Source: a virus
Reading direction: 5' to 3' (one strand)
Length of the DNA stretch: 35,439 nt
Virus genome (UHGV): UHGV-0327679
Shown: in pieces, positions 10,958 to 28,914 of the stretch
How the letters are laid out: every line of letters begins with the position of its first letter
Position numbering within the stretch: position 1 is the stretch's first letter
Made by a program: the position numbers and the translations under genes
The notes under the pieces: generated by a model
Databases searched by the model: none
The model's input: only the letters and a program-made list of their open reading frames with translations
Told to the model about the DNA's origin: nothing

Positions 10958-10966
10958 TTATTCACC

Positions 10967-11428
10967 TCACGTACTCGGATCATCTTTCTCGATGTAAAAC
11001 CGATTCCACGTATACGCGCTTTTGTTACCACTACCGCGAGGCATGTCATTTCGCCGCTCAAGTGGTGGTATTTTGGTTAAAGCGATGCAGATTGTCTGAT
11101 ATGCGCTGTCAGCAGCGGTAAGGAGAGCATCCGACGGCTGAATGACGTTATCCATGCACACTTGCACAGCGAGTTTCAAAGCGACGCCATCATTTGCCCA
11201 TGCAGGGATACCTGAATCATCGTCAGGTAACGGCATGATGCCGTTTTCTGTATCAGCAAACTGATATCCAAGCTCGATACCTTTCGCCTGCCATGCTGCC
11301 ATCATGTCTTCGAGGTCATTAATGGCATCTTCAATTGCCTGAGGGTCGGCATCTGTCAACGTGGCATTGGAATACAGCCCGGCTTTTCGTAAAGCCTTTA
11401 GAACGAGATCACCCTTCGTTTTCGCCAT
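10967..11428 (-). CDS. Head-completion/tail accessory protein, P22 gp4-like
   Basis: 153 aa; synteny immediately downstream of the coat region. Confidence 0.65.
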   Translation of the reverse strand: MAKTKGDLVLKALRKAGLYSNATLTDADPQAIEDAINDLEDMMAAWQAKGIELGYQFADTENGIMPLPDDDSGIPAWANDGVALKLAVQVCMDNVIQPSDALLTAADSAYQTICIALTKIPPLERRNDMPRGSGNKSAYTWNRFYIEKDDPST

Positions 11429-11597
11429 CTTCTTCCGCCTTAGCCACTTTTTGCTTCGTTGCGGTTTCTTCAGGAGTTTTTACCCAACCTTTTTTCAGGT
11501 GAGATTTAACTTCTTCGTCATCAACAATGATGTAATCGACAGCAAACTGACCACAGGTGATCATGTTGCCCGGCTTATAGAGCATTGTTCGTGCCAT
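11409..11597 (-). CDS. Small hypothetical protein (62 aa) downstream of coat
   Basis: ATG at 11597 with GGGAGA Shine-Dalgarno; MARTMLYKPGNMITCGQFAVDYIIVDDEE. Confidence 0.5.
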   Translation of the reverse strand: MARTMLYKPGNMITCGQFAVDYIIVDDEEVKSHLKKGWVKTPEETATKQKVAKAEEDGENEG

Positions 11598-11638
11598 TGT
11601 CTTCTCCCAATAAAAATGGGGCCGAAGCCCCACCAAAA

Positions 11639-12892
11639 TTACTGCCCGGCAATAACGATGCCCGTATATTCAGGAACAAGTACAGAGCAGCCGTACAGAG
11701 TGGTGAAACGCGCAGTGGTTACGCCTTTGATGTGGTCGAAGGCGTAAGACATAATCAGCGTAGCGCCCTGCTCGGTGGTTGCCGTCATTACCTGTGGACC
11801 CTGACCAGTCGGGAACGCCAGTTTGCCGTACATCAGTTCAACAGAACCATCAGCCCAGAACAGGTTAGCCGGTGCGGCATTTTTGTTGAGAATGGTGATT
11901 GCTGCGCTACTTGCCGCATTAGCATCAACGTTTGCATATGGACGGCTGGCGACATCCGCGTTGTCAGGCGGCAGAATTTTCGGGGAGATAGTTACTGTCG
12001 TTCCGCTAACTGCCAGAACGCGGAATACCTGCGGCTGCCCGGTGGTATCTTTGGTGATCTGGTGTACGGAATTCACCCCTGCGATGGTAAACGCATCGCC
12101 AACCTGCAAACCTTCATCAGATACCGTAATGGTCCCCTGTCGGTTATCCACTGGCATTTCGTTAGCATCTTTCGCTTCAACCTTGTGCGCAGGTGCTGCT
12201 GCCAGCGTAATGGAAGTTGCTGTACCCTTCGGAACACGACCAGAAATATCGGTCTTGTAGCTATCGAAGGACGCAACCGGAGGGATCTGCGCTTTTTCGT
12301 ATGCTGTCAGGGTTGCGCCCTGAGCATAGGCACGGTGACCAAGCTCGCCAGCAAGGTCTTTGTAGTTGAAGGGGTTCCAGAAAGAGCGGCGGTTGATACC
12401 CTGTGGTACACCAATCGCCGTCATGGTGGCATCAATACCTGCCGCACAGTTCCACAAATCACGGCCCTGTGAACCAGTGGTTGAGTCAGCCATTGTGATC
12501 ACGTTAGTAGCACGCTGCGTGACCATGGAAATCAGGTCAGAGTCAATCTGTGCAGCAAGGCGCATACCTGCGGCGCGACCAGCTTCAGTTTTATGTTCCG
12601 GGTCACGCATTTCACGCGCATCCAGAGTGTACAGAATGTTTTTCGGCTCCTTGAACACAGAAGGAACAAGGCGCTGAACCAGTGCTGTTGGCGTTTTGCC
12701 GCTGAGGTCTAGGCCTTCCTCAATGTTCATGTGGTAATGCTGCGGACGATACAGAACATCACCTGCTCGCTGCATTGCTGTATCACCGGGACGGAATTTT
12801 TTAGCGTTACGGGAAACTACGCAGGCGGCCTCAAAGCCTTCAACGTAGTTTTCGAACATGATTTCAAGGTCTTTTGCTAATTGGTTAGCCAT
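11639..12892 (-). CDS. Major capsid (coat) protein
   Basis: 417 aa directly downstream of scaffold and upstream of gene 4; size and position match the P22-like coat. Confidence 0.8.
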   Translation of the reverse strand: MANQLAKDLEIMFENYVEGFEAACVVSRNAKKFRPGDTAMQRAGDVLYRPQHYHMNIEEGLDLSGKTPTALVQRLVPSVFKEPKNILYTLDAREMRDPEHKTEAGRAAGMRLAAQIDSDLISMVTQRATNVITMADSTTGSQGRDLWNCAAGIDATMTAIGVPQGINRRSFWNPFNYKDLAGELGHRAYAQGATLTAYEKAQIPPVASFDSYKTDISGRVPKGTATSITLAAAPAHKVEAKDANEMPVDNRQGTITVSDEGLQVGDAFTIAGVNSVHQITKDTTGQPQVFRVLAVSGTTVTISPKILPPDNADVASRPYANVDANAASSAAITILNKNAAPANLFWADGSVELMYGKLAFPTGQGPQVMTATTEQGATLIMSYAFDHIKGVTTARFTTLYGCSVLVPEYTGIVIAGQ

Positions 12893-12910
12893 GTTTAATG
12901 CTCCGATAGG

Positions 12911-13804
12911 TTATTTTTTTGCCTTTTTAGCGGCGAAATACGGCGTCCAGTCACCAGTTTCCAGCGCCTTGGCTTTCAATTTGCCGAGGTTGTTGATTAC
13001 TGCGCCGTTGCTCCCCTTAACTGTCGGGGTTGTGGCTGCCGTGGTTTTTGCTTTTGGCATGACTCTGGCCTTCGATTCGATACGTTCCAGCAGACGACCA
13101 ATTGCTACGGGGTTGGTAGCTTCTGCCAGTTGCTTGCGCAGTTCAGCGTTGCGACCGAGCGCCAGAACAACGATTTCCGGCTTCTCTGACTCAAACAGGA
13201 TCGCGTTTTGTGTCTCGATGGGGATTTCCTCGAGTACGGCCTGTTCTGCTTCCTGATAGCCAGGAACTTTGAGAGCCTTAACACGTTGCTGATATTTGGA
13301 TAATCGCTCTTGATAGGCAGCCTGAAGCTCCTGCTCCTTCTGCTTGCGAGCCATCTCCTGTTGCTGGTACTTGCCGTTATCCTCTGCCCACTTAGCCATG
13401 CGTTGCTGGTAGATTTCTTCATCGAAACCGATGTCCTCATCATCCAGTTTTGGCATTCGCGGTGGTTGAGTTATTACCGGCTGCTGCTCGACGGGTTTCT
13501 GAGACTGACGCATCAGCTCTTTCAGCTCGCGGTCTTTCTCTTTAATCGTCTTGCGCAGGTGTTTTACCAGTCCATGCTCTGCGCCATCTTCGCTGGTTGG
13601 CGAATCCAGCTTTTCGTCACCAAAGTAGAATTCCTGTTCTGATTCGTCGTCATCAGTTTCAGTAGCTTCCTCTGCATCATTGCCGGAGGACTCACTGCCA
13701 TCTTCTGTTTCGACTTCTTCAGCCAGTTCGACATCATCAGGAATCTGCTCTGACGCGTCGGTTTCGATTTCAACTTCTGGTGTGTTTTCTGCCATCTGGT
13801 CCAT
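12911..13804 (-). CDS. Scaffolding protein
   Basis: 297 aa, highly acidic N-terminus with predicted coiled-coil, Lys-rich C-terminus; between portal and coat. Confidence 0.8.
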   Translation of the reverse strand: MDQMAENTPEVEIETDASEQIPDDVELAEEVETEDGSESSGNDAEEATETDDDESEQEFYFGDEKLDSPTSEDGAEHGLVKHLRKTIKEKDRELKELMRQSQKPVEQQPVITQPPRMPKLDDEDIGFDEEIYQQRMAKWAEDNGKYQQQEMARKQKEQELQAAYQERLSKYQQRVKALKVPGYQEAEQAVLEEIPIETQNAILFESEKPEIVVLALGRNAELRKQLAEATNPVAIGRLLERIESKARVMPKAKTTAATTPTVKGSNGAVINNLGKLKAKALETGDWTPYFAAKKAKK

Positions 13805-13894
13805 TTGTTACCCCTGTTTACTCGATGTTCAGCCCATCGGAAGGCAATAGGGTGCCAGGCCTCATAAAGACAGCCATTGCACGTTATGGGTTAA

Positions 13895-16093
13895 TTACTG
13901 CTGTGGTTGTTGCTGAGTTGATTTTTGCAGGATGCTGCTGATGTCCATGCGCTGCGCATGACCCTGTGCCTGACTTTTCAGGACAAGCTCTGCATCAGCA
14001 CGGGCATTGTCTCCTTGCTGTTGCTGGAACTGTCCGAGCAGTTTCAGAGCCTCGCGGATATCAGATTTCTGCTGGCTATCGGCAGATGCGAGGATTTTCA
14101 CAACATTTGCCGCTGCAACCTGAGCATCAGTCTGTGCCTGGAATGCTTTAACCTGAATGGCTGCCTGTTCGTTCTGCGCTTTCTGCAATTCAGCCTGACC
14201 AGCAAGAAGCTGACCTTGCGCAGCAACCATAGCCGGATCTGGCTGACTGGCCTGTTGTTGTTTCGCCTGCTCAACCATCTGCTGTTCTTCTGGCGTTCTC
14301 GGCTTGATAACTCCAGACAGAAGCAACTGATTGCGGTTGTATTCTTTCAGGTCGTCCATCCCTTCTCCGTCCATATTGTCGAGAATCATCGACGATACAA
14401 GGTCGTGCTTCGGCGTCCCTGGCGGGATAAGTGCCAGCATGGAAAGTAACGACTTAACCGTTGCATCACGGCGAGTAGCGAACGACTGACCGACATCGAC
14501 AGTCACTTCGTAGTTACCCTGCGAAAGGTCGTTAAGCGCGATAACCTGCCCTGTCTGACGGTCAACCACTTCACCAGTCATCAGCGCCACGTCATCGCTG
14601 CCGTCCTCATTAACGATACGCATCGGCGTATCGCTGCCATAGACTTCACGCGCCATAGAAAGCCACACAACGCCAGCGCGACGCATAGATTTAGCCATGT
14701 TGTCCATGTAGATATAGGACTGCGTGTCCATCCGGTTAAAGATGCTATCAACGGTATCGGTGGCGACGTTGCTCGGCATGTTCTCAAGCTGCGACGCACC
14801 TGTAATTTGCTGAATAGCCGTTCCGGTGTACTGCAATAGCCCGGCAAGAGCTGGAGGCATTTGTGTCGGAGGCGTATAACTGCTGACCTGAGCCTGCGCA
14901 GTAATATCTCCGTTTTTGTTTTTCAAACTGACCATCGGCAGGAACGCCGGGCGCTTTTTGTTGCGCTCCGCCCAATGAGTGGCAAGAGGACCAGGAATCA
15001 TGTCAACATCAACTACAGGAATGCCATCACCGCCAGCCTGAGTAGCGTTATCTGCAATCATGGAAACCATCAGGTTCTCAAGACGCTGTGCATCCATCGC
15101 TTTTGCTGCGTGGCCTTCGATTCGCTCCTGATTATCAACAAATGAACGACGCCCATATACCGGGATGAGAGGAATATGTTCGCCCGGAATACGCTTCGGT
15201 TCTTCCAGCCATTCAGCGCCAGACAGAAGACCGCAATAAACTCGGCGTTTCTTCACCGTTCGCTCGCCAATCAGTTCGAATGCACCATCGGTCAGCTCGT
15301 CGACAATATCTTTGATTTGCTCTTCATCATAGATTGCCGTTTCTCCGCTGACAGGGTTACGCCATGCTGTGAGCTTCACCTTCTCTATGCGAACTTCGTA
15401 GTAGCGACCAACATAGATAGCATCAGGAGTTGACCAGTCATATTGAGTGCCAGTGTCATCACGAGAAAGGCTTGCCGCGATGGAATCAGGGTATTCAGCC
15501 TCGAACGCTTTAGGCGTCATGGAGAACATTTCCATAGCCCACATAGCATCAGAGCGGTCATATTGCTTGCTGTCCTGATCGAAGAAGACGCATGTCGCTG
15601 GGTCGTAAACAGGAAGAAGGCTGATGCGTCGCTGCTCGTTACTCGGATCCATTTCATCTTCGTAATCGGCACACATGCGGAAACAACCGAATCCGCCCGT
15701 TACAGCATCATCAAATGCGTTATCACACGCTTCGCCACCGGATGTTTCCTGATAGTCAGCGCGGAATTTGCCGTTCATCTTTTCGGCTAACGCTTCCGAT
15801 GCCTTGTCATCCTTCGGCCTGAATTTAACGCTGATGCGATTCTGTCGATACTCGCCAATGATGCGATCACATTCACGGGCAATCTTATTCAGCTCAAAGC
15901 GCGGGTAATGCTCAAACCTGCCTTCATCAAATGAGTAACCAGCGTTTGTGCTGCCTTCCCACTGTGCGCCGGACACCCGGACGAAACGTTGAGCTTCAAT
16001 AATCTGCTCACGCATATCCTGCGTTGCTGACCAGGCATTATCAAAGTTGCACAGCACCTTGCGATGCCAGTCAGTCATCTTTTTTTCTGCCAT
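13895..16093 (-). CDS. Portal protein
   Basis: 732 aa (P22 portal is about 725) with a Gln-rich C-terminal barrel segment; immediately downstream of the large terminase. Confidence 0.85.
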   Translation of the reverse strand: MAEKKMTDWHRKVLCNFDNAWSATQDMREQIIEAQRFVRVSGAQWEGSTNAGYSFDEGRFEHYPRFELNKIARECDRIIGEYRQNRISVKFRPKDDKASEALAEKMNGKFRADYQETSGGEACDNAFDDAVTGGFGCFRMCADYEDEMDPSNEQRRISLLPVYDPATCVFFDQDSKQYDRSDAMWAMEMFSMTPKAFEAEYPDSIAASLSRDDTGTQYDWSTPDAIYVGRYYEVRIEKVKLTAWRNPVSGETAIYDEEQIKDIVDELTDGAFELIGERTVKKRRVYCGLLSGAEWLEEPKRIPGEHIPLIPVYGRRSFVDNQERIEGHAAKAMDAQRLENLMVSMIADNATQAGGDGIPVVDVDMIPGPLATHWAERNKKRPAFLPMVSLKNKNGDITAQAQVSSYTPPTQMPPALAGLLQYTGTAIQQITGASQLENMPSNVATDTVDSIFNRMDTQSYIYMDNMAKSMRRAGVVWLSMAREVYGSDTPMRIVNEDGSDDVALMTGEVVDRQTGQVIALNDLSQGNYEVTVDVGQSFATRRDATVKSLLSMLALIPPGTPKHDLVSSMILDNMDGEGMDDLKEYNRNQLLLSGVIKPRTPEEQQMVEQAKQQQASQPDPAMVAAQGQLLAGQAELQKAQNEQAAIQVKAFQAQTDAQVAAANVVKILASADSQQKSDIREALKLLGQFQQQQGDNARADAELVLKSQAQGHAQRMDISSILQKSTQQQPQQ

Positions 16094-16094
16094 A

Positions 16095-17510
16095 TCAACC
16101 TACACCACAAGGAATTGAGTAACTGGAATAGTCGGGTTGCGCAGCCGACTCCGGGCAATGCATACACATCATCAACGCATCAGCCAGGTTAGGAGATGGA
16201 ATACCGAGCTTCTGCTTCATTTCGACCTTAGTCATTAGCTCCAGCTTCCCGTTATTATTGAATTTGCGCTGAATCTGCGTCAGTTCTGCAAACAGCTTCT
16301 CCAGCATCTTCTCGCCTATCGCTTCTTTGTCGAAACTCAGCATGTCGTCTGGGTCTGCATACTCACCGTAGACAACCGCCCGATATGTCAGATACAGCCT
16401 GTCAGCCAGCGCGTAATAGAATTGCGCTCGCTTATTGCGGAATACATCGCCAATAGTGCGAACATTGTCGCCCTGTACGACTTCATCAGCCCATGCTCCG
16501 GCCTGATATGGCGCATCTTCATCGAATGGCGATTCGCTGCCCTTGAACATCGTGGCGGTGATTTTCTTGCCGGAGAACGCTTCCGTTGTCTGCCTGCGTA
16601 GCCCGGCACCAACACCATCACCATCCCACAGGTAGTGGTCAGCGCCGTCTTCAATCGCCAGCGAAGTAGCCCAGTCAGCACCCTCGTTGATGTCCATCAG
16701 CAGACCTTCGGCAATGCGCTTAACTACCGAACCGTGGCGCGATGCATAACCTTTGGCATCCGGCCCTGTATCTGATGGGTCATGCGCAGAGACAACAGCG
16801 CCTTTCGCTTTCCATCCGAGTTTCTTGTGCGCATCGGTAGCAGCTTCAAGCCATTCACGTTTGATGATTGCCATATCACTTGCGCTTACTGGCTCACCAA
16901 GCCAGATGTGACGATACAGTGTCGGATTTCTGCGTTTGCACTCTTCCATCTCCAGACGGAGAACTTCAGGAAAGTGCGGGTTGTCGGTGTAGTTCACCGT
17001 CAGCAGACAAATATCATCAGGAGGGTTTACGACGAATCGCTGATAGGTATCGTCGAGGATGTTTTTCGGGTTGAAGCTCACCCATATTTCGGAAAACGGC
17101 TTGCGGATGGTTGGTATCAGGATGTCCCATGATTCCTTCGTTACCGCTTCCGCTTCTTCCACCCAGCAGATATCAATGCCTTCGAGCGATTTAATCTTCG
17201 TCGGGTTGTTTTTTATGCCGTAGAACATGAATTCAGCATTCGTTCCGAGATGACGAATCATTGAACGCTGAATTTCAAACTCAGCCGAATACCCTTCCCG
17301 CTCTATGGTGTCTTCAAGCAACCGGATTACCGAATCGCTGATACTGTTTTGCAGTTCACGAGCGCAGAGAATACGCACTGGCTGCCGACGCGCCGCTTCA
17401 ACAAGCAGCCTCGCAATTGCCCATGATTTACCGCTACCTCGACCGCCTTTGGCGACTTTGTAGCGATGCGCCTCAATGAACGGTTCAAAGATAGGATTAA
17501 TCGAGGTCAT
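16095..17510 (-). CDS. Terminase large subunit
   Basis: 471 aa; Walker A GGRGSGKS; nuclease domain; overlaps the small-subunit stop. Confidence 0.9.
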   Translation of the reverse strand: MTSINPIFEPFIEAHRYKVAKGGRGSGKSWAIARLLVEAARRQPVRILCARELQNSISDSVIRLLEDTIEREGYSAEFEIQRSMIRHLGTNAEFMFYGIKNNPTKIKSLEGIDICWVEEAEAVTKESWDILIPTIRKPFSEIWVSFNPKNILDDTYQRFVVNPPDDICLLTVNYTDNPHFPEVLRLEMEECKRRNPTLYRHIWLGEPVSASDMAIIKREWLEAATDAHKKLGWKAKGAVVSAHDPSDTGPDAKGYASRHGSVVKRIAEGLLMDINEGADWATSLAIEDGADHYLWDGDGVGAGLRRQTTEAFSGKKITATMFKGSESPFDEDAPYQAGAWADEVVQGDNVRTIGDVFRNKRAQFYYALADRLYLTYRAVVYGEYADPDDMLSFDKEAIGEKMLEKLFAELTQIQRKFNNNGKLELMTKVEMKQKLGIPSPNLADALMMCMHCPESAAQPDYSSYSIPCGVG

Positions 17511-17932
17511 TTTCCGAATAGAGTGCTCATCGGTGATGTTTCAATCTGGATTGCGCCGCCGTCCTTACCGACAAGCTCGTTAGTTACCTTGTCGCCATAC
17601 TTACGGGGATTCATTCGGGCCAGCGCCCATTTGCGGGTATCAACGCGAAGTCTTGCCTTTGCCACCTCAGCAGCATCTGGAATCGCAGTGTCAGCAATTT
17701 CGAATATCTCTTCGAAAATAGAATCAGCTCGTGCCTCAGTTGCCTTCGCGTACTTGTCTCTAAATTCTTCATGCTCTGACAGCCAGCGAAATACAGTAGC
17801 CTTTGCTGGCATGCCGGGGCGCTTGCAAACCTTAACCAGACTTTCCCCGGAGGCAAGCAGCGCACAGATATCATCAGCCACCTCCGGCAGGTAATCCGAA
17901 GGGCGACCGACATTCTTTTTCTCAGTCGCCAT
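17507..17932 (-). CDS. Terminase small subunit (Sf6 gp1-like)
   Basis: 141 aa MATEKKNVGRPSDYLPEVADDICALLASGESLVKVCKRPGMPAKATVFRWL, close to the Sf6 small terminase. Confidence 0.85.
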   Translation of the reverse strand: MATEKKNVGRPSDYLPEVADDICALLASGESLVKVCKRPGMPAKATVFRWLSEHEEFRDKYAKATEARADSIFEEIFEIADTAIPDAAEVAKARLRVDTRKWALARMNPRKYGDKVTNELVGKDGGAIQIETSPMSTLFGK

Positions 17933-18011
17933 ATTGATTATTTCCCTTCTGCTTGCTTATCCCATTCATCGCGGAATTTGGATGGGTTGTCGAAACCTTG
18001 AGTTGCCATGT

Positions 18012-18254
18012 TTATGCTCCGGTAGTGAACAGGTCTAACGCTTCCTTCGATTTACGCACCGCTTCGATAGTGCGGGTCGTGATATCTGAATTAGCGCCAC
18101 CTGACTGGAAGTGAATTTTGAATAGCTCAAGCTTCAGTTCGTCAGTACCAATGAACTGAAATGCTTCTTCTGCGGCTGCGTTCTGGTTCATGACCAGCTT
18201 GTAAATCTCTAACTGGAATTTCTGTTCTTCAGTCATGGGAATAATCTCTGCCAT
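18012..18254 (-). CDS. Hypothetical 80-aa protein upstream of terminase
   Basis: GGAG upstream of ATG 18254; conserved position in P22-like phages. Confidence 0.5.
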   Translation of the reverse strand: MAEIIPMTEEQKFQLEIYKLVMNQNAAAEEAFQFIGTDELKLELFKIHFQSGGANSDITTRTIEAVRKSKEALDLFTTGA

Positions 18255-18581
18255 TGTTGGCTCCGTTTATCCGTTAAAAGGGATATCAGTTAAGTTATCC
18301 CGTGTAGGGTATAAGCCATTGTCGAGACCACTCATTGAATGGTCTCTGCAATAACCGATGTCTTTCCATCAGTCCGCCACCACAAAGAATCTTTTTTGCC
18401 ATAAGGCAGGAGGTTCATCTTTCAGTGGCTGCCAGTGTTATTTCCCCACTTACTGGCTTGGGTTGTTTCGTGGTACTGCCGTTAACTGGTGGCCCAGAAT
18501 AAATTCCGGTTTCATTATCAAGCCCACCCGTAAATGGGCTTTGTAATGAAGAGTTGTTATGAAAATTGCTCTAAACAAGCA

Positions 18582-19070
18582 TTAATAGCCATCAGAAGTA
18601 ATCGCTACAGATTTCAATCCCTCAATGTCATCCTTGGACAGGGCGAACCATTCACCGTGCTTTCTCTTTGCGGCAAATTTGCGATGAAGCATGTTTTCAG
18701 TTTCTCTTCCACCAGGGATCAGGCACTCAAGCTTCAAGCAGTCTGGTCCAGAGTTGCCAAGCGATTTGATGCGTTGTGGAATGTTGGATGAATACCCAAT
18801 TTTGGTTAGCCCAGTTTTCTTCGATGACAAAACGTATACCTGAGGAGGTTCTTTTCTCTGGTCTTCCATTACACGTCTCATTGTTGCCATAAGTCCGCCG
18901 TGCATCAGCATTTCAACAAAGAACGCTGACCGAACACCTGACGACTTAAGCATGCCAGAAAATTCACTTGCCAATTCCATTAACTCTGCGATGTTTTCAG
19001 GAACTTTTTGGCAGTTATCTTCCTTGTATAAGGAAATCATTCTTTGAAGCTTTTCTTCTAATTGGTTCAT
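18582..19070 (-). CDS. T5orf172/GIY-YIG-like domain protein (moron)
   Basis: C-terminal pattern VYVLSSKKTGLTKIGYSSNIPQRIKSL ... ENMLHRKFAAKRKHGEWFAL fits the T5orf172 (MUG113) family; AT-rich; lies after the lysis-cassette terminator; start ambiguous (ATG 19070 or GTG 19106). Confidence 0.6.
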   Translation of the reverse strand: MNQLEEKLQRMISLYKEDNCQKVPENIAELMELASEFSGMLKSSGVRSAFFVEMLMHGGLMATMRRVMEDQRKEPPQVYVLSSKKTGLTKIGYSSNIPQRIKSLGNSGPDCLKLECLIPGGRETENMLHRKFAAKRKHGEWFALSKDDIEGLKSVAITSDGY

Positions 19071-19220
19071 AGCGTCTTTACCTTTTAGAAAGTGAGCCTG
19101 TCTCACAGAAAAGCCGCCCCGAGATGGTCGCCACCATATACGGCAGTTCTCAGGCTCAACTTTCTGAAAGGCTCGGGTGATGTAATATGCGCGTGAGATG
19201 CGCTGTGAAATTCAGATGTA

Positions 19221-19244
19221 AAAAAAGCCCCGCATCGCGAGGCT
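19221..19244 (-). terminator. Rho-independent terminator after the lysis cassette
   Basis: Minus-strand hairpin GCCTCGC-GAT-GCGGGGC followed by TTTTTTT, 30 nt downstream of the Rz stop. Confidence 0.7.
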
Positions 19245-19328
19245 CATTAAATGGACTTTGTGATTTGCAAAAAAATTATTTCAGGCACTGAGTCCTGATG
19301 TACTCCTGCAGGTAGTTAACCTGCGCGG

Positions 19329-19487
19329 TTATCCTGTCGATTCCAATTCGGAGACGGTAATAATTGAGTTCAGCATCTGCTGTAAGTCTTGGGCTTTCTC
19401 CATTGCCCATGCCGCTGGCTCCGGTCGTTGACTTTGCACAGGTGGCGGCGACTTGCAGGCGCTTACGACCAGCAGAAACAGCCACAT
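19329..19487 (-). CDS. Rz1: o-spanin Rz1 (embedded lipoprotein); start probably affected by the Rz rearrangement
   Basis: Lipobox VSAC followed by the Pro-rich KSPPPVQSQRPEPAAW and LNSIITVSE, resembling lambda Rz1; +1 frame within Rz. Confidence 0.5.
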   Translation of the reverse strand: MWLFLLVVSACKSPPPVQSQRPEPAAWAMEKAQDLQQMLNSIITVSELESTG

Positions 19488-19657
19488 CCACAATCGCTGA
19501 CATGCAGAAGCGTCAACGTGATGTAGCAGAACTTGACGCCAGATACACAAAGGAGCTTGCTGATGCTAACGCGACTATCGAAAGTCTCCGTGCTGATGTT
19601 CCAAGTTCTGCTACATCACGTTGACGCTTCTGCATGTCAGCGATTGTGGATGTGGCT
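19480..19657. repeat. Perfect 56-bp inverted repeat (19480-19535 vs 19602-19657) around a 66-bp inverted segment inside Rz
   Basis: Reverse complement of the left arm equals the right arm exactly; spacer is 66 bp (22 codons). Confidence 0.85.
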
Positions 19658-19769
19658 TTATCGCGCTGCTCTTTGTAGGCGATGGCGTTATCACGGTAAT
19701 GATTGACCGCCCACGACAGACAGACGACGATGCAGATAATCAGAGCAGATATAATCGCGGTTACTCTGC

Positions 19770-20246
19770 TCATACCTCAATCTCTCTGACCGTTCCGCCA
19801 GCTTCTTTGAATTTTGCAATCAGGCTGTCAGCCTTATGCTCGAACTGGCCATAACCAGCGCCCGGAAGTGAAGCCCAGATATTGCTGCAACGGTCGATTG
19901 CCTGACGAATATCGCCGCGGTCAATCATCGGTAAAGCGCCACGCTCTTTAATCTGTTGCAATGCCACAGCGTCCTGGCTTTTCGGAGAGAAGTCTTTCAG
20001 TCCAAGCTGCTTGCGGTAGGCATCCCACCAACGGGAAAGAAGCTGGTAACGTCCGGCTGCTGTTGATTTGAGTTTTGGGTTTAGCGTGACAAGTTTGCGA
20101 GGGTGATCGGAGTAATCAGTGAATAGCTCTCCGCCAACAATGACGTCATAACCATGATTTCTGGTTTTCTGACGTCCGTTATCAGTTCCCTCCGACCACG
20201 CCAGCATATCGAGGAACGCCTTACGTTGATTATTGATTTCCACCAT
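19770..20246 (-). CDS. R: Endolysin (lambda R-type lytic transglycosylase)
   Basis: 158 aa [49 protein letters not shown], near-identical to lambda R. Confidence 0.9.
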
Positions 20247-20553
20247 CTTCTACTCCGGCTTTTTTAGCAGCGAAGCGTTTGATAAGCGAACCAATCGAGT
20301 CAGTACCGATGTAGCCGATGAACACGCTCGTTATATAAGCGAGATCGCTACTTAGTCCGGCGAAGTCGAGAAGGTCACGAATGAACCAGGCGATAATGGC
20401 GCACATCGTTGCGTCGATTACTGTTTTTGTAAACGCACCGCCATTGTATCTGCCGCGAAGGTACGCCATTGCAAACGCAAGGATTGCCCCGATTCCTTGT
20501 TCCTTTGCCGCGAGAATGGCGGCTAACAGGTCATGTTTTTCTGGCATATTCAT
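20230..20553 (-). CDS. S: Holin (lambda S-type, dual start MxxM)
   Basis: 107 aa [45 protein letters not shown], near-identical to lambda S. Confidence 0.9.
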
Positions 20554-20845
20554 GTCTTACCCCCAATAAGGGGATTTGCTCTATTTAATTAGGAATAAGG
20601 TCGATTACTGATAGAACAAATCCAGGCTACTGTGTTTAGTAATCAGATTTGTTCGTGACCGATATGCACGGGCAAAACGGCAGGAGGTTGTTAGCGCAAC
20701 CTCCTGCCACCCGATTTCACGAAGGCAGCCATTGAGCTGGTTTTGTTTTATGCAAAGCACACCGCACCGTAGCCACAGCGGATAAGGTGATTATTTTGGT
20801 CTGTCTGGTATTTGGTTTGATGTGCTTTCAGAAAGGCCGTGCTTA

Positions 20846-20880
20846 AAACGCAAAAAGCCCCGAGCTATTAACTCAGGGCT
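20846..20880 (-). terminator. tR'-like terminator of the short late leader (6S-type) RNA
   Basis: Minus-strand hairpin AGCCCTGAG-TTAATAG-CTCGGGGCT followed by TTTTT, about 40 nt downstream of the predicted PR' start. Confidence 0.55.
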
Positions 20881-20915
20881 TTATTTAACGAGTGCATTTA
20901 TCCATCGTTAGGTCA

Positions 20916-20944
20916 AATTTACCCAACTTTATTCAATAAGTCAA
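20916..20944 (-). promoter_or_regulatory. Late promoter PR' (-35 TTGACT, -10 TAAATT) with the adjacent Q-utilisation region
   Basis: Minus-strand TTGACTTATTGAATAAAGTTGGGTAAATTTGACC closely matches the lambda PR' region; 17-nt spacer. Confidence 0.7.
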
Positions 20945-20986
20945 TATCATGCCGTTAATATGTTGCCATCCGTGGCAATCATGCTG

Positions 20987-21610
20987 CTAACGTGTGACCG
21001 CATTCAATATGTTGTCTGCGATTGACTCTTCTTTGTGGCATTGCACCACCAGAGAGTCATACAGCGGCTTAACAGTGCGTGACCAGGTGGGTTGAGTAAG
21101 GTTTGGGATTAGCATCGTTACAGCGCGATATGCGGCGCTTGCTGGCATTCTTGAATAGCCGACACCTTTGCATCTTCCGCATTCTTTCTCAACAACTCTC
21201 CCCCACTGCTCTGTTTTGGCTATATCAACCGCACGGCCTGTACCGTGGCAATCTCTGCATCTTGCGCCCGGCGTCGCGGCACTACGGCAATAATCCGCAT
21301 AAGCGAATGTTGCGAGCACTTGCAGTACCTTTGCCTTAGTATTTCCTTCGAGCTTTGCCACACCACGGTATTTCCCCGATACCTTGTGTGCAAATTGCAT
21401 CAGATAGTTGATAGCCTTTTGTTTGTCGTTCTGGCTGAGTTCATGCTTACCGCAGAATGCAGCCATTCCGAATCCGGCTTGTGATTGTGCCATCCCCATA
21501 GCAGCCATCACATCAGTACCGGAAAGAGAGTCAGACGCCGTGGCCCGTGGTGAGTCACTCATCATCGGGCTTTTTGGCGAATGAAATTTAGCTACACTTT
21601 CGAGTCTCAT
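20987..21610 (-). CDS. Q: Late antiterminator Q (lambda-type)
   Basis: 207 aa MRLESVAKFHSPKSPMMSDSPRATASDSLSGTDVMAAMGMAQSQ, near-identical to lambda Q. Confidence 0.9.
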   Translation of the reverse strand: MRLESVAKFHSPKSPMMSDSPRATASDSLSGTDVMAAMGMAQSQAGFGMAAFCGKHELSQNDKQKAINYLMQFAHKVSGKYRGVAKLEGNTKAKVLQVLATFAYADYCRSAATPGARCRDCHGTGRAVDIAKTEQWGRVVEKECGRCKGVGYSRMPASAAYRAVTMLIPNLTQPTWSRTVKPLYDSLVVQCHKEESIADNILNAVTR

Positions 21611-21795
21611 GGTCTACCCCTCTTGCCCTGTTTGACCATCAGGACGCCGTTAACTATTACGTGACGCTCACCTTTGCTGTCTCGGTTGTACTTGAGCACT
21701 GTTCCTCTTGCGCAGGAAAGCATCCTCGCCACTTCGGTCTGATTGCCTCGTGTCTGGATAAGAAGCTCTGGTATCGTTTGAATTGTGGCGTTCAT
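21607..21795 (-). CDS. ninH: NinH-like DNA-binding protein
   Basis: IPELLIQTRGNQTEVARMLSCARGTVLKYNRDSKGERHVIVNGVLMV resembles lambda NinH. Confidence 0.7.
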   Translation of the reverse strand: MNATIQTIPELLIQTRGNQTEVARMLSCARGTVLKYNRDSKGERHVIVNGVLMVKQGKRGRP

Positions 21796-22154
21796 ACGTT
21801 CTCCAGTTCGGTGATTTTTATTCCAAGCCTTCCGCCTGGTACTTTCACACCACGAATTACGCGAATGTCATCGAATTGCTCGTCGTCTTCCGCAAATCCG
21901 GCGTGGATAAGTGAGTCGAGTAAACCTTTCAGGATGTTGTCGAGGTCGCGGCGGCGGGAGTCTGGAACGTCTGCGATGACTTTGATACGGAGTCGTGATT
22001 TGGTAAAAATGTCTAACTTGAGTTGGCGGATGATTTTCTGAACGTCTTTTCGGTATTTCTGGCCTTTATCGCTTATGTAATATTGGCTTCCCCGTCTTCG
22101 CCAGTAGGTATTCAGCGACGGTGGGTATGGAAGTACAAACTGATATTCGTTCAT
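21792..22154 (-). CDS. rusA: Holliday-junction resolvase RusA
   Basis: 120 aa; motifs LPYPPSLNTYW and DSRRRDLDNILKGLLDSL. Confidence 0.85.
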   Translation of the reverse strand: MNEYQFVLPYPPSLNTYWRRRGSQYYISDKGQKYRKDVQKIIRQLKLDIFTKSRLRIKVIADVPDSRRRDLDNILKGLLDSLIHAGFAEDDEQFDDIRVIRGVKVPGGRLGIKITELENV

Positions 22155-22441
22155 GGCTTAATCTTCCCCTCCTTCAGCAGTATCGCCTGCGTCCTGATCA
22201 CGCCTTCGAGGTGGTAAAGTCTGGCGTCTTTGTTGTCGAGAATCCGGGTGCGTCGGTCGATCTCCGCGTGGCAGTCACTACAAGCCCATGCGCAGATCAG
22301 GTCGTCAGGCTTCATTCCCGTTCCGCAAATTCCAGCCATCCGGTAATGTGCCAGAACTGTAGTTTCAGGATTACCATTGCATACGCCGTAAATACGTACC
22401 TGGCATTCTCTTCCGCGCGCTTCTTTGCGTAGGTTAGCCAT
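22151..22441 (-). CDS. ybcO: YbcO-like (DUF1364) putative nuclease
   Basis: 96 aa Cys-rich ECQVRIYGVCNGNPETTVLAHY ... CSDCHAEIDRR; nin-region synteny. Confidence 0.65.
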   Translation of the reverse strand: MANLRKEARGRECQVRIYGVCNGNPETTVLAHYRMAGICGTGMKPDDLICAWACSDCHAEIDRRTRILDNKDARLYHLEGVIRTQAILLKEGKIKP

Positions 22442-22646
22442 TTACCTTCCCTCGCAATTGAAGAATTGACTGAAGGTCTTTTTTAATAAATATGCGAGTG
22501 CGAATTGAGCAGTAGTTTTCCTTCATTCTGGCGTAGTAATAGTCTTTTCTTTGCTTAAGCTTGTTGGCATCCGCTGTCATCCAGTCTTTTACAGCAAACT
22601 TAATTAACCAGCGGTGGTAGAGATACCATTTCAGGTAATCATTCAT
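22434..22646 (-). CDS. Hypothetical 70-aa nin-region protein
   Basis: Overlapping start/stop arrangement with neighbours; AT-rich. Confidence 0.45.
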   Translation of the reverse strand: MNDYLKWYLYHRWLIKFAVKDWMTADANKLKQRKDYYYARMKENYCSIRTRIFIKKDLQSILQLRGKVNG

Positions 22647-22821
22647 CGTCTTCTTCCTCGTACATTGAGCTATTCGGATCGCTCATCAGTTCTGCACAGC
22701 AGTGCTCACACACGTGAACTTCCAGCACATGCAGCTTCTGACCGCAGTTAGCGCACGTTAAAGCCCGCTCGACGCTTTCTTTCTGGTATTGAATGGATTG
22801 GGATGGGCTAAGCATTAACAA
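22639..22821 (-). CDS. ninF: NinF-like zinc-finger protein
   Basis: [60 protein letters not shown] matches lambda NinF. Confidence 0.8.
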   Translation of the reverse strand: MLMLSPSQSIQYQKESVERALTCANCGQKLHVLEVHVCEHCCAELMSDPNSSMYEEEDDE

Positions 22822-23758
22822 CCTCCATACAAACTTTCACGAATGCCGTTGCTACTTCTGCATTGATTGCGTTTCCATATCCAATAATTCGCTGATCTTG
22901 ATTGCGCTTTGCCATTCTTCCCAGTGTGGACTTGCCTCGTCCCAAGCTTTTGGCAATGCCATTAACCATCGGGAATGAGCCGGGTCTAACTGGACGATAT
23001 TTTTCATCTCTACAGTAAAGCCAGTCTGCATCTCTCCAGAAGCCGTTAACCGGTAATGGGTACATAGCTTCACCGTCCCGGGAAGTTTCAAGCAGATTCT
23101 TGGGGTTCCGCTCTTGTCTTTTCCGCTGTAGCAATGCGTTGAACCTGTTGCATCGTTCGCTAAAGGAGTTTGCCATCCCGCTAGTCTCACGCATCCAGAT
23201 AGGTTCTGAATTCCCCTGCGCGTCTCTGGCTGAAAGTTGATATTTGTCGTTGGAGTAGGCCACCCAATACAATCGCTGCCTAATGTGCGGAGAACCGAAG
23301 CCCGCAGCGCAAATATCGGTACCTGCAGAGGTGTAGTTCGCACCTTCCAAGTCAGTTTGTACAAGGTCGAGCCAAGCGAGGCCGTCTGCGCTTGCAACCT
23401 GTTCGCCAATAACGATGCCAGGATTGCATTTTTCAATAAGCCAGAAGAATGCCGGCCATAAGTGCCGCTCGTCATCAACCCCTTTTCCTTTGCCTGCCGA
23501 GCTGAAAGGTTGGCATGGGCAACTTCCTGTCCAGATACTCTTGTTGTCTGGCCATCCTGCTTTTCTAAGTGCATAGCTCCAAACTCCGATTCCTGCAAAA
23601 AAGTGGTGCTGGGTAAATCCTCGCAAATCACCTGGTGTGACATCTTCAATACTCCTTTCATCTACATAACCGGGGGCAATTTCTCCAGCGTCAATTAAGT
23701 TACGCAGCCATTGCGCTGCATACGGATCTATTTCGTTGTAATACGCAGTCATCGTCAT
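22808..23758 (-). CDS. Orphan DNA (cytosine-5) methyltransferase
   Basis: Ordered C5-MTase motifs: [37 protein letters not shown]; no adjacent restriction endonuclease; start taken at the ATG overlapping the ninD stop. Confidence 0.75.
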
Positions 23759-23931
23759 TTCCTCGCACGATGTCTTAGCCACCGGATATCCCACAGGTGA
23801 GCCGTGTAGTTGAAGGTTTTTACGTCAGATTCTTTTGGGATTGGCTTGCGTTTATTTCTGGAGCGTTTCGTTGGAAGGTATTTGCAGTTTTCGCAGATGA
23901 TGTCGGTGAAACTTCGTCGCTGTCGTCTCAT
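23755..23931 (-). CDS. ninD: NinD-like small zinc-binding protein (58 aa; absent from the ORF track as it is under 60 aa)
   Basis: Translated by hand: [62 protein letters not shown] overlaps with ninB stop and with the MTase start. Confidence 0.6.
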
Positions 23932-24338
23932 TCGTACCTCCTGTCGGTAAATCTGACACCCTGACCAATAGCCCAGGCTGTTGTGTACTCAATCAGACTT
24001 GCCATACGCTTCACACTCATCTGCGCGCTGCTTTCGCGGATGTTGACGTATTCGCCTTCAAGCCCGGGCAAAACATCAGCTTCCTGCTTTGTTGCCACTG
24101 CATGACCGCTGATCAACAAAACCTTCCATTGTTCTGGTTTTAACCATTTATCGCGCCACTGAACTTGCCTGGCGATATCTGCGACCATCGCGTGAAATTT
24201 TGCGTTCTGGTCAAGATTTCGCTTGTAGTCAGTAATGCGGATGGTGACTGGCTTGTCTTTATCGAGTGGTGTTGCGAGGATGGCGTTGATTGCGGCTTGC
24301 TGTTGTTGCTTACTCCTGAGGAAAATTGTCTGTTTCAT
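23928..24338 (-). CDS. ninB: NinB (Orf-family recombination mediator)
   Basis: 136 aa with [22 protein letters not shown], resembling lambda NinB. Confidence 0.8.
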
Positions 24339-24346
24339 GGAATTCC

Positions 24347-24559
24347 TCAGTATGCGTAAAGGCTGTATCCATTTTTATTTGTCCTGGTGCCATAGCCATA
24401 TAGGCTCCAGCCATCCTGTTTTCTCTCACCAAAAATATGCTTGCGGTATTCTTCCTGCTGGCGTCTCCATATTTCCATCATGTCTGGCTGGTTCTTTTCT
24501 CGCATTTTTCGGATCTGCTCAAGGATGAACTCTATTTGCTGCTGATTTGTCATGCTCAC
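24347..24559 (-). CDS. Hypothetical 70-aa protein
   Basis: Complete ORF in the nin region. Confidence 0.4.
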   Translation of the reverse strand: MSMTNQQQIEFILEQIRKMREKNQPDMMEIWRRQQEEYRKHIFGERKQDGWSLYGYGTRTNKNGYSLYAY

Positions 24560-24563
24560 TCCT

Positions 24564-24779
24564 TCACTTTAAATCCAGGTTCCGGATAATTCTGTCACAC
24601 TGAAAATCAGTATCGATTTTAACCAACCGGCGAAGAACGCGGTCACGCGGATAGCTCCGTGGCTTAGGGGCGTTTTTCTGTCTCTCGCCAGTCGGAAGTC
24701 TGGAAGCAGACCAGTACCGCTTTGCACGACCAATGTTCTCCTGAAAGTCGGCGCGGACAAGCTCAGCTATCGTACTCAT
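24564..24779 (-). CDS. Hypothetical 71-aa basic protein
   Basis: GGAGG Shine-Dalgarno 9 nt upstream of ATG 24779. Confidence 0.5.
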   Translation of the reverse strand: MSTIAELVRADFQENIGRAKRYWSASRLPTGERQKNAPKPRSYPRDRVLRRLVKIDTDFQCDRIIRNLDLK

Positions 24780-24805
24780 TTCTTAAAGCCTCCAATTACT
24801 CTCCC

Positions 24806-24838
24806 CCAAATAAAAAGGCCTGCGATTACCAGCAGGCC
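24806..24838 (-). terminator. tR2-like terminator between the replication genes and the nin region
   Basis: Minus-strand stem GGCCTGC/GCAGGCC (24817-24838) followed by TTTTTATTT. Confidence 0.6.
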
Positions 24839-24864
24839 TGTTATTAGCTCAGTGATGTAGATGG

Positions 24865-26241
24865 TCATACGTCAGCCCCTTGTGCATATCGTCTGCCACG
24901 CGCAGCAGGTGCATTTGATGCTGTGCAAATCTGTCTGGCTTCATCCTGGTCACATGCAACAAAGTGTCCGTTGCAGAACCGCTGGTAAACCGTACCAAGT
25001 GAGCCAAAACGGTTTTTCGTCACAATGATTTCAGCAAATGGCGCGGCGCTACTGTTCTCGTCATATACAGCTTCCCGATAGAGCATGATGATTGAGTCTG
25101 CGTCCTGTTCAATGCTTCCTGAATCACGCAAATCTGCGTTTGTCGGGCGTTTGTTTGGTCGCTTCTCAACATCGCGCGAAAGCTGACTCAGGGAGATAAC
25201 AGGCGTTTTCAGGTCTTTCGCCATCGCCTTCAGGCTTCCGGAGATGTGAGCAATTGCGAGGTCGTTGCGATCTGCTTTCGGCTTCTCAATCAGGCCAAGA
25301 TAATCCACCATGATGAGTGACAGGTTTGGATTTTCCTGTTTGTGCCGTTCTGCGATTGAGCGTATTTCTTCGACCGATAACCGCGAGGCATCGACTACCC
25401 ATACATCCAAATCTGCAAGCTGACTCATGCCGTTAGCAACGCGCGCCCAGCCTTCGTCATCCATCGATGCAGGATTTCGCAGCACACTAACCGACATCCT
25501 CCCGGCGTTGGCAATACTTCGCTCTGCAATCTGCAATGCGCTCATTTCCATTGAGAAAATCAACACTCCGCGCCGGACGTCAGAACCAGGAATAACGCGG
25601 CTTGCAACGCCTTCGGCAATCTTCAGCGCCAGTTCGGTTTTACCCATACCGGGACGAGCGGCGATAATCACCAGGTCTTCTGCGTTCATCCCTCCGGTGA
25701 TGGCGTCAAGTTCGTCGATTCCGGTCTTCAGGGTATCTGACTCTTCTCCGTTCCTCAGACGCCTGTCAAGCGTGTCAGTGTAGTCAGTGATGATTTCCCC
25801 TAACCGTACCGGTTTAACCTCGTCACGGGGCTTTCTGATGGCTGAAAGACGCTTTACAAGTTCATCCATCGCCTGACTCGATGCGTCGATGGTTCCGCTC
25901 TGAATTGGTTCACGCATTTCATCCATGATTTCCAGCACCAGACGGCGGTGATAGTTATCCGCGACCATTCCGGCATATCCCTTCAGGTTTGCGGCACTCG
26001 GGCAGTTTTTGCTGGTCATCAGGATTGACGTGAAATGCTCCTCTCCGCACGCCTCGGCAACCATCAGCGCGTCGATTAAATTTCTGTTTCGCGCCTGCTT
26101 GCGGATAACCTCGAAGGCTTTCCGGTAGAGCGGAATTGAAAACGCTTCCGGCTCCAGCGTTGCCAGAACGTCGCTGGCGGTTGGAGTTAATCCACCAATC
26201 AGCAGGCCACCGATAACGCTCGCTTCGATATCCTGTCTCAT
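24865..26241 (-). CDS. Replicative DNA helicase (DnaB-like, P22 gene 12 type)
   Basis: 458 aa; Walker A GMGKT; DnaB C-terminal domain motifs. Confidence 0.85.
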
Positions 26242-27185
26242 GCAATCCCCCTGTCTGCAAACTTCCCTTCCCGTACTCCCGTTAACGAATCTTCCCTCAA
26301 CAGGTAATCAAAATCAGCCGTCCAGCCCGTGTCGTTGTCTCCGAAGTAAAACGGCTTGGCCTGATGCACAAACGCCCTGACATACGCTCTGAAACCGTCC
26401 ACGTTTGGCGTTTTCAGTTGCGGGATGATTTTCTTCAGGCGGCGTTTGCGTTTCTCGTTGACTGCAACAGCATGTGGAAGTCTGTCACCGACTTCGGTGT
26501 TGTAGGCGTTCAGGAAGGATTCGTAGTCGATTCGTTCTGCCTTGCGACGTTCAGGTTTAACCTGCCCATCGCCGCCCCCATTGGGGGGTAGGGGGGTATT
26601 ATTTATATTCTTGTTAATACCTTCTTGTTCATGATGTGCGGTTGTTTGTGCGGCTTCATGTGCGCTTTCATGTGCGGAATGTGCGCTGAAAGCTGCGCCA
26701 TTACTGGCTTCGTCATGTGCGGCATCATGTGCGGTTGTTTGTGCGGCATCATGTGCGGGTAAATTGTCCATTTTTTGAGCATATTCATGGTAATTTGTGA
26801 TGGTGATCACACGACCTTTTTGCTTCTCTCCATCAATGGAGATCATCCCTTCTTTCACAAAAACCTGAAGCATCCGCTCAACCTGATCACGGCTTGCTGG
26901 CTTGCCATGTCTGTCGCATAACTGAAGACCTAAATCAGCTGCTGTCACAACCAGTTGACCGGGTTGCAGATGCCATTCATGACCTTTGAAATTCGCTTTG
27001 TATGGCTTTCTGGCGGCATTCAGGAGAAGGTTTTCCCACAGGGTGCGAAGATAAACATCTTTCGCCCATGACTGTTTCAGAATGCTCCGGTACAACGGAA
27101 TGTAACCAGTTTTCTGGTTCTCCATCCTGTTGCTCCTGCGCTCGTGTGCGGCGCTGAAATCGTAGATTTTTGCTGTATTGCTCAT
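26238..27185 (-). CDS. O: Replication initiator O-like protein
   Basis: N-terminus [10 protein letters not shown] resembles lambda O (MTNTAKILNF); His/Ala repeat linker encoded by the iterons. Confidence 0.8.
26629..26759. repeat. Probable origin iterons: about 8 tandem copies of a roughly 12-bp unit (tcATGTGCGGc) inside the O gene
   Basis: Repeated CATGTGCGG read directly; adjacent G-rich then AT-rich stretch 26575-26625; same arrangement as ori-lambda within O. Confidence 0.6.
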
Positions 27186-27187
27186 AA

Positions 27188-27460
27188 CTACCTGCCTTGA
27201 CGAAAGACCTTAAGAACATCGTTAAACTGACTTACGGATATGTCTTCTTTGAGAAGCTTTTCCAGAAATGCGTTTGGAATGAACGTATATCCCTCCTCTT
27301 TTGGTAGAGACGGGAGCAACGCCATCGCCTCAGCCTTCAGAAGCTCAGTTCTGGCAACTTTCACAAAAGAGATTTGAGTTCTTTCATCAATGGAACGAAG
27401 GAAGCGCAAACGCTTAGCTTCTTTGTGTGTATCAGGTGGATTAAAGCCTTTGTTTCGCAT
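27188..27460 (-). CDS. Hypothetical 90-aa protein inserted between cII and O
   Basis: ATG 27460 with GAGG Shine-Dalgarno; lambda has no gene at this junction. Confidence 0.5.
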   Translation of the reverse strand: MRNKGFNPPDTHKEAKRLRFLRSIDERTQISFVKVARTELLKAEAMALLPSLPKEEGYTFIPNAFLEKLLKEDISVSQFNDVLKVFRQGR

Positions 27461-27535
27461 ATAATTACCTCGTTGGATGTTGTTAAAATTCCATTTGTAT
27501 TTGATCAGAACGCTCGGTTGCCGCCGGGCGTTTTT
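27460..27535 (+). ncRNA. oop: oop-like antisense RNA with its terminator
   Basis: 3' portion TTCAGAACGCTCGGTTGCCGCCGGGCGTTTTTTATT matches lambda oop and its terminator; 5' end uncertain. Confidence 0.5.
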
Positions 27536-27776
27536 TATTGGTGAGAATCGAAGCAACTTGTCGTGCCAATCGAGCCATGTCGTCGTCAACGACGCCCCAT
27601 TCAAGAACAGCAAGCAGCATTGAGAACTTTGGAATCCAGTCCCTCTTCCACCTGCTGATCTGCGACTTATCAACTCCCACAGCTTCCGCTGTCTTCTCAG
27701 TTCCAAGCATTGCGATTTTGTTAAGCAACGCACTCTCGATTCTTAGAGCCTCGTTGCGTTTGTTTGCACGAACCAT
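27483..27776 (-). CDS. cII: Transcriptional activator CII
   Basis: MVRANKRNEALRIESALLNKIAMLGTEKTAEAVGVDKSQISRWKRDWIPKF, near-identical to lambda CII; lambda-type Shine-Dalgarno TAAGGAAATACTTACAT. Confidence 0.9.
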   Translation of the reverse strand: MVRANKRNEALRIESALLNKIAMLGTEKTAEAVGVDKSQISRWKRDWIPKFSMLLAVLEWGVVDDDMARLARQVASILTNKKRPAATERSDQIQMEF

Positions 27777-27855
27777 ATGTAAGTATTTCCTTAGATAACA
27801 ATTGATTGAATGTATGCAAATAAATGCATACACCATAGGTGTGGTTTAATTTGAT

Positions 27856-27887
27856 GCCCTTTTTCAGGGCTGTGATGTGTAAGAGCG
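27856..27887 (-). promoter_or_regulatory. nutR (boxA CGCTCTTAC, boxB GCCCTGAAAAAGGGC)
   Basis: Minus strand reads CGCTCTTACACATCACAGCCCTGAAAAAGGGC, matching lambda nutR. Confidence 0.8.
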
Positions 27888-27895
27888 AGAATGTC

Positions 27896-28883: not shown

Positions 28884-28914
28884 CAGCCTCACAACTCTAA
28901 AATACACAACAATA

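Follow-up and report, generated by a model that had tools for sequence, protein, structure and literature searches.

A foldback with the form of a template switch disrupts Rz/Rz1 in a P22-like prophage contig and is probably an amplification artifact

Lysis genes and the foldback within Rz

The lysis genes of the window (the whole 35,439-nt stretch of DNA that was analyzed) are encoded on the - strand and comprise a holin (20230-20553), an endolysin (19770-20246) and Rz, whose start lies at 19773. Rz is positioned directly downstream of the holin and endolysin, as in embedded spanins. Inside Rz there is a perfect inverted repeat of 56 nt, with arms at 19480-19535 and 19602-19657 and a spacer of 66 nt between them. 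This structure had been described in a first-pass annotation and was recovered both by direct reading and by a scan of the 35,439-nt window for inverted repeats of at least 25 nt and at least 97% identity. The scan placed the arms at 19475-19535 and 19602-19662 (61 nt, 97%); the five outermost positions include two mismatches, and this lengthening of the arms by 5 positions is a chance effect. The only other pair to pass the scan, which had been proposed earlier as a search for further repeats of this kind, lies in the tailspike gene (1-79 and 167-245). Folded as single-stranded DNA, 19465-19672 reached -83.7 kcal/mol, compared with -30.4 +/- 3 for shuffled sequences (z = -17.8), and a chance origin of the Rz repeat is excluded.

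Translation of the + strand from 19535 to 19600 gives 22 codons that are residues 58-79 of the native 145-aa Rz, which occupies 31577-32014 of the FDAARGOS_1256 prophage locus (L003). Rz itself is encoded on the - strand, so that codons 58-79 now lie on the opposite (+) strand, as had been claimed for the middle of the gene. The earlier description of a segment inverted together with an inverted copy of the adjoining 56 nt also stands, although it needs correction in its extent: the inverted block is 121 nt long, it includes an extra 4-nt duplicate, and it is followed by an orphan C at 19601.

Read along the + strand, the final native bases before the first junction are AACA (19477-19480), where the BLAST blocks overlap at 19480 (point 1 of the reconstruction given below). 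The left arm (19480-19535, +) is an extra inverted copy of the sequence for Rz residues ~39-57 and is the reverse complement of 19602-19657, a sequence that is single-copy in relatives. It is followed by the inverted native core of Rz (19536-19596, +), 61 nt that hold most of codons 58-78 and contain the Rz1 start codon (19563-19565). The inverted block then passes the departure point by 4 nt, so that AACA is copied as TGTT (19597-19600, +), and the BLAST blocks place the end of the back-copied fragment (point 3) here. The orphan C (19601, +) sits at the return junction, is templated by neither native continuation and is required for exact reconstruction. The right arm (19602-19657, +) carries codons ~39-57 at their native position, and the native sequence restarts at its first base (point 4 = 19602). 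In total, a 61-nt core is inverted and 56 nt plus 4 nt are duplicated in inverted orientation, for a net gain of 60 nt. The first junction is ambiguous by 1 nt (an A); the second has no ambiguity and carries the orphan base.

Damage to Rz and Rz1

Native Rz is 145 aa long, and the 61-aa lipoprotein Rz1 is embedded within it in the +1 frame, starting 199 nt into Rz. In the window, the N-terminal part of Rz is an 86-aa ORF (19513-19773, -) in which 57 native residues are followed by 29 junk residues and a stop. This stub retains the transmembrane segment and the start of the periplasmic domain, and it gave no match to the PF03245 profile. The remainder is an orphan C-terminal ORF of 75 aa (19276-19503, -), which begins with 8 junk residues, continues with native residues 79-145 and matches PF03245 at positions 58-125 only (E = 3e-19), compared with positions 13-125 for the native Rz of a relative. 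What is left of the o-spanin Rz1, from codon 13 to the stop (19329-19479, -), is severed from its own start codon; that codon and the first 12 codons now lie on the + strand at 19563-19598. No single ORF in the window joins a membrane anchor to a complete PF03245 domain, and there is no embedded +1 ORF that has a start, a signal sequence and a lipobox Cys of its own.

Flipping the spacer in silico brings Rz1 into frame with a 20-aa insertion, and Rz then stops after 79 native and 7 junk residues. With Rz interrupted after residue 57 and codons 1-12 of Rz1, start codon included, on the wrong strand, the spanin is predicted to be lost, as the first-pass annotation had anticipated, and it would be non-functional with the spacer in either orientation. 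The damaged gene is otherwise an ordinary lambda-type Rz/Rz1 spanin and no new biological system.

Closest relatives of the window

By its sequence matches, the window is a P22-like (Lederbergvirus-type) E. coli prophage. Its top phage matches were E212, Sf101 and CUS-3 with their relatives, and near-identical prophages occupy the argW tRNA-Arg site in two complete E. coli genomes, FDAARGOS_1256 and Combat2C1. The FDAARGOS_1256 prophage locus (L003) provided the reference coordinates onto which BLAST blocks were mapped. Window positions 1-166 are the reverse complement of L003 12579-12414 (100%), 167-18482 correspond to L003 12501-30815, 18483-19188 have no L003 match and form a replaced module, and 19189-19480 correspond to L003 31492-31781 (96%). 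The inverted block at 19480-19600 is the reverse complement of L003 31898-31778 (100%), the orphan C at 19601 has no L003 counterpart, and 19602-35439 correspond to L003 31843-47680. The window differs from FDAARGOS_1256 at four positions (3194, 12117, 20346 and 27324), all non-synonymous: I134V in a hypothetical protein, A259D in the major capsid protein, N70D in the holin and R46M in a small protein next to cII.

A closer relative than FDAARGOS_1256 was located through exact-protein look-ups of rare variants. It is a metagenome scaffold, ENA ERZ28622663 SHAL23-1_SAMN27256323_METAG-scaffold_79, which shares all four of these differences with the window; a look-up of two of them recovered both in further public contigs. 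Three pieces of the scaffold (L031, L015 and L034) jointly span window 167-35439 with 0 mismatches, and the sole differences over this range are the Rz foldback and one 1-nt gap that corresponds to an extra T in the window. From 19602 to 35439 the two are 100.000% identical (0 mismatches, 0 gaps). The scaffold encodes a collinear 145-aa Rz (PF03245), a 472-aa gp10 and a T5orf172 gene downstream of Rz. Other assemblies of the same lineage are native over the parts they cover: NCBI GCA_032330935.2 and Logan SRR18212177 at the tailspike end, Logan SRR26133267 over gp10 and the inverted Rz block, and Logan SRR26133269 over gp10.

The replaced module is mosaic and holds a T5orf172/MUG113 (GIY-YIG-like) ORF (18582-19106, -) just downstream of Rz, at a site where FDAARGOS_1256 has a KilA-N gene. 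Because the ENA scaffold has the same arrangement, this module is natural variation within the lineage and no part of the Rz lesion. A gene for an endonuclease with HNH_3 and AP2 domains (710-1210, +) lies between the antirepressor and the start of the tailspike. The collection lists 1,710 blocks with the identical protein, and at the ten loci shown the neighboring tailspikes are of seven lengths (570-981 aa); the gene resembles a homing-type passenger at the conserved head-binding end of the tailspike. For both foldbacks, a nuclease-like gene is no more than about 500 nt away.

Search for other carriers

By megablast, the Rz foldback was found in none of the 3,939 complete E. coli genomes with an Rz match and in none of the 373 phage records with this Rz, so the possibility that intact Rz homologs naturally contain the repeat, which had been named as a check, did not hold in either set. 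Exact junction strings were absent from IMG/VR, JGI metagenomes and GTDB representative genomes, and an exact-sequence look-up of the four chimeric ORFs of the window returned no second carrier. None of the three lesions described in this work occurs in other public assemblies of the lineage, over the parts covered. The Rz foldback is a private, derived lesion and not a functional element.

A programmed element, either a site-specific invertible switch or a regulatory or terminator hairpin acting on the lysis genes, is almost inconceivable as an explanation. Invertible segments are known from phage tail-fiber genes, and one of the two foldbacks does lie in the tailspike gene. However, the arms exactly duplicate coding sequence of which every relative has a single copy, a near-identical prophage is annotated without an invertase, the integrase being its sole annotated recombinase, and Rz is truncated whichever way the spacer points (57+29 residues as observed, 79+7 when flipped). 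The structure is also present in no other genome among those compared.

Logan contigs from other samples break at window 19690-19699, inside Rz. A graph branch at the foldback was considered as the cause of these breaks and was rejected, the offset from the arm edge being unfit. Co-resident lambdoid prophages with a similar Rz (median 2 places per genome) probably explain the breaks better.

Reconstruction of Rz as a single template switch

Four-point template switches have been defined by the order of their switch points, and in this scheme the order 3-1-4-2 gives two inverted repeats around an inverted spacer (PMC5453318). At Rz the points in L003 coordinates are 31778 (point 3), 31781 (point 1), 31843 (point 4) and 31898 (point 2), that is, 3<1<4<2. 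Joining fragment F1, the reverse complement of F2, a C and fragment F3, all three fragments taken from the native ENA scaffold, reproduces window 17128-35439 exactly (18,312 nt). The Rz sequence is exactly what one switch-and-return template switch of type 3-1-4-2 yields.

The steps of such an event would be as follows. Copying would proceed along the native template, + strand, up to L003 31781, and would then switch to the complementary strand, running from 31898 back to 31778 (121 nt) with a 4-nt overshoot. One untemplated C would be added, and the native template would be regained at 31843, 61 nt past the departure point. Such an event would leave the 56-bp and 4-bp perfect inverted repeats and the inverted 61-nt core, lengthen the sequence by 60 nt and abolish both spanin subunits. 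The template-switch events of Loytynoja and Goldman appear to be shorter than the 121 nt back-copied at Rz.

A two-step origin is formally available, in which an inverted 55-nt copy of L003 31843-31897 plus a G enters the sequence behind 31781, duplicating a 4-nt target (AACA), and recombination between the arms later flips the spacer. The flip isomer is formally a 60-nt insertion between direct AACA repeats, in which Rz1 is in frame with a 20-aa insertion. This route requires two events instead of one, there is no mobile element or transposase, the inserted DNA is all local, and the first step would put point 4 before point 1, a class unseen in real data (PMC5453318). We regard it as very improbable. 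Insertion of an IS element or MITE was also considered and rejected: all inserted bases but one are local copies, and the 4-nt duplicate is inverted, not direct.

Priming at short inverted repeats of the native sequence was examined as well. A lone 7-nt pair, AGCAGAA/TTCTGCT, lies near points 3 and 4 (p about 0.03) and was unused, and the remaining breakpoints show chance-level 5-mers only. This candidate was rejected.

A twin foldback in the tailspike gene and a single-base lesion in gp10

The second foldback has the same architecture as that in Rz as far as it is visible, in agreement with the earlier description. The native order of two segments in the tailspike gene is B (87 nt) followed by A (79 nt), and the order in the window is A', B', A. 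The left arm (1-79, +) starts at window base 1 and is the reverse complement of 167-245. It is followed by the inverted 87-nt segment (80-166, +), a region where the lineage assemblies L030-L032 are collinear, and by the right arm (167-245, +), in which the native sequence restarts; window 167-8376 is 100% identical to L030, L031 and L032. After the inverted stretch 1-166, the native sequence thus resumes at L003 12501, and no microhomology is seen across the junction at 166/167. Of the two tailspike junctions only this one is visible, since base 1 of the window coincides with the outer edge of the 79-nt arm.

Together, the left arm and the inverted segment (1-166) encode tailspike residues ~148-203 on the wrong strand, and the chimeric tailspike ORF keeps the head-binding domain and then continues into junk. 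Across this region, 20 complete E. coli genomes and three lineage assemblies are collinear. Four independent short-read assemblies of the lineage (L030-L033) end inside the tailspike within ~350 nt of the foldback, at L003 12261-12617. A branch of the assembly graph near L003 12430 would account for the ends of two of them, one from Logan (k=31) and one from ENA (provided that its assembler used k=55). A second partial copy of the tailspike segment is present in some complete genomes and may explain these breaks. That copy was also considered as the source of the foldback and rejected, as it cannot create an inverted junction.

The third lesion is an inserted T at 10648, the sole single-base gap relative to the lineage. 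It turns the native quasi-palindrome CTACAG-C-CTGAG, with its 6-nt arm, into the perfect CTACAG-C-CTGTAG (10638-10650, +). The insertion frameshifts the gp10 homolog, and the native 472-aa protein is replaced by ORFs of 108 aa and 404 aa. It was present in none of the 876 complete E. coli genomes carrying the gp10 gene and was absent from three assemblies of the same lineage. In simulations, a random 1-nt insertion fell inside a new perfect repeat of at least 6 nt in 0.9% of cases with a spacer of up to 3 nt and in 2.9% with a spacer of up to 10 nt. The link between the T and the palindrome was noticed post hoc and is suggestive (p about 0.01-0.03).

Origin of the three lesions

Compared with identical public copies, the window carries three private changes, each of which creates a perfect inverted repeat, and 0 substitutions in ~35 kb. 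A mechanism shared by the two foldbacks, as had been suggested, is supported by these observations and extends to the T at 10648, which also perfects an inverted repeat. The first-pass annotation had left the choice between template switching and an amplification artifact open. Of these we favor the artifact: the foldback is probably no natural feature but a product of amplification or library preparation from a bottlenecked and amplified template.

Because the three lesions create repeats, no substitutions accompany them and the contig starts at an arm edge, we infer a polymerase that would have had high base fidelity and frequent strand switching and would have acted on one or few template molecules. 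Whole-genome or low-input amplification, or a related library artifact, may have generated the rearranged molecule, which short-read assembly would then have preserved. The same process would also have produced the T in gp10 and, at the contig start, the foldback in the tailspike. The right end of the window (35439) lies inside a DUF551 gene. Because the ENA scaffold continues unchanged through the same sequence, this end is specific to the assembly of the window, and it is consistent with uneven coverage. The contig start at the arm edge and the right end together suggest the behavior of a graph assembler at an unresolved inverted repeat under uneven coverage.

One observation also counts against an amplification artifact. 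The contig traverses both Rz junctions, so the native junctions must be absent or rare in the reads and the rearranged molecule dominant in the sample, and this is also expected from a true clonal mutation. A genuine 3-1-4-2 template switch in vivo during replication of the prophage in E. coli, with all three lesions arising likewise, is the main alternative, and we consider it possible but rather unlikely. Replication stress, or a host that suppresses such switching poorly, could for example have favored it, and the prophage would be defective and decaying. The inserted T has the form of a classic quasi-palindrome correction, inactivating lesions do build up in prophages, and E. coli tolerates an inverted repeat of 56 bp with 66 nt between its arms. 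However, a cell would have had to acquire three repeat-creating lesions and zero substitutions in ~35 kb relative to independent lineage assemblies, when ordinary mutation spectra would be expected to favor substitutions far above large template switches. The large events lack the pre-existing microhomology normal for switching in vivo, and the 7-nt repeat nearby went unused. There is no obvious gain to the host from losing the spanin, the tailspike or gp10, and none of the three lesions is in any other public assembly of the lineage. That all three arose in one short strand-switching burst in vivo, confined to the prophage, seems to us unlikely. Such a burst might, for example, have been set off by replication stress or by a nick close to the neighboring HNH and T5orf172 (GIY-YIG-like) genes.

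In contrast to both a laboratory and a cellular origin, a purely computational error would mean that no such molecule existed and that the assembler, scaffolder, gap-closer or polisher created the sequence, e.g., through a hairpin path in the assembly graph. The first foldback is at the contig start, its 79-nt arm could equal the k-mer length of the assembler, and the window ends within unique sequence. However, a de Bruijn assembler would need reads containing the two new junctions, the orphan base and the inserted T, and five whole Logan (k=31) contigs of the phage, mostly of the same lineage, stay collinear over their full length. We consider an error of this kind distinctly improbable. Inverted-repeat reads of the nanopore ligation type (PMC13141652) were another candidate and were rejected; these are strand fusions of whole reads, and they leave the 66-87 nt spacers and the internal two-junction event unexplained.

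Implications for viral contig collections

If the contig were annotated as it stands, the spanin would be called broken, the tailspike truncated and gp10 frameshifted, and the phage might be taken for a defective or unusual one. The base-identical public copies are intact, and the main relevance of the finding is to quality control. Changes that only create repeats, with no substitutions and a contig start at an arm edge, could serve as an artifact flag in viral contig collections. If the lesions were real, they would show that enterobacterial prophages undergo large template switches with almost no homology, and that such switches can knock out several essential genes together. Were a burst in vivo the true origin, the window would hold natural bacterial 3-1-4-2 switches (121 nt and at least 166 nt) with almost no microhomology, and would show a route to the disabling of prophages without point mutations.

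Comparison with known systems

The site of the damaged gene, after holin and endolysin, is that of the embedded Rz/Rz1 spanins of lambda and P22, and relatives of the window encode a 145-aa Rz and a 61-aa Rz1 there. The window differs from this type in that the gene is split into a 57-residue stub and an orphan C-terminal ORF.

The invertible tail-fiber segments of the Gin/Cin/Hin type also have an inverted segment between inverted repeats, and one of the foldbacks here is in a tail gene. Unlike these segments, the foldbacks come with no invertase, their repeats are fresh and absent from relatives, there is no intact orientation, and 60 nt have been gained. Coding palindromes of Nematomorpha mitochondria, as outlined in PMC6649704, are likewise long perfect inverted repeats inside protein-coding sequence. 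There both arms are described as protein-coding, whereas the repeat in the window breaks the reading frame and occurs in one sequence only.

The T in gp10 resembles a frameshift templated by a quasi-palindrome (the Ripley model, PMC5453318) in that it perfects a pre-existing imperfect inverted repeat. The resemblance is limited to the small gp10 lesion, as the large foldbacks arose without a usable quasi-palindrome.

Products of multiple displacement amplification (MDA) with phi29 polymerase are closer in several respects. They contain one junction per 10-22 kb, of which 85% are inverted (Lasken & Stockwell 2007, PMC1855051), and the window has a similar density, with 2 foldbacks and 3 visible junctions in 35.4 kb. 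As in the window, local segments (<10 kb) are joined in inverted orientation with high base fidelity. The junctions themselves differ. Among proximal inverted phi29 MDA junctions, 93.5% have at least 2 nt of complementarity (PMC1855051), and the overlaps of MDA chimeras peak at 6 nt (Tu et al. 2015, PMC4595205), compared with microhomologies of 1, 0 (plus 1 inserted nt) and 0 nt at the three junctions visible here. The jumps, all of them strand-inverting, cover 117, 65 and 87 nt, compared with a reported mode of 250-300 nt. Because junction microhomology is only 1, 0 and 0 nt, a textbook phi29 MDA chimera is disfavored, and we keep it as one member of a broader class of amplification artifacts.

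The closest formal match is the 3-1-4-2 type of Loytynoja and Goldman (2017, PMC5453318). Apart from the untemplated base at the Rz return junction, which that type does not include, the Rz foldback has the same composition: a first fragment, a reverse-complemented fragment that overlaps it, and a third fragment in which the native sequence is regained.
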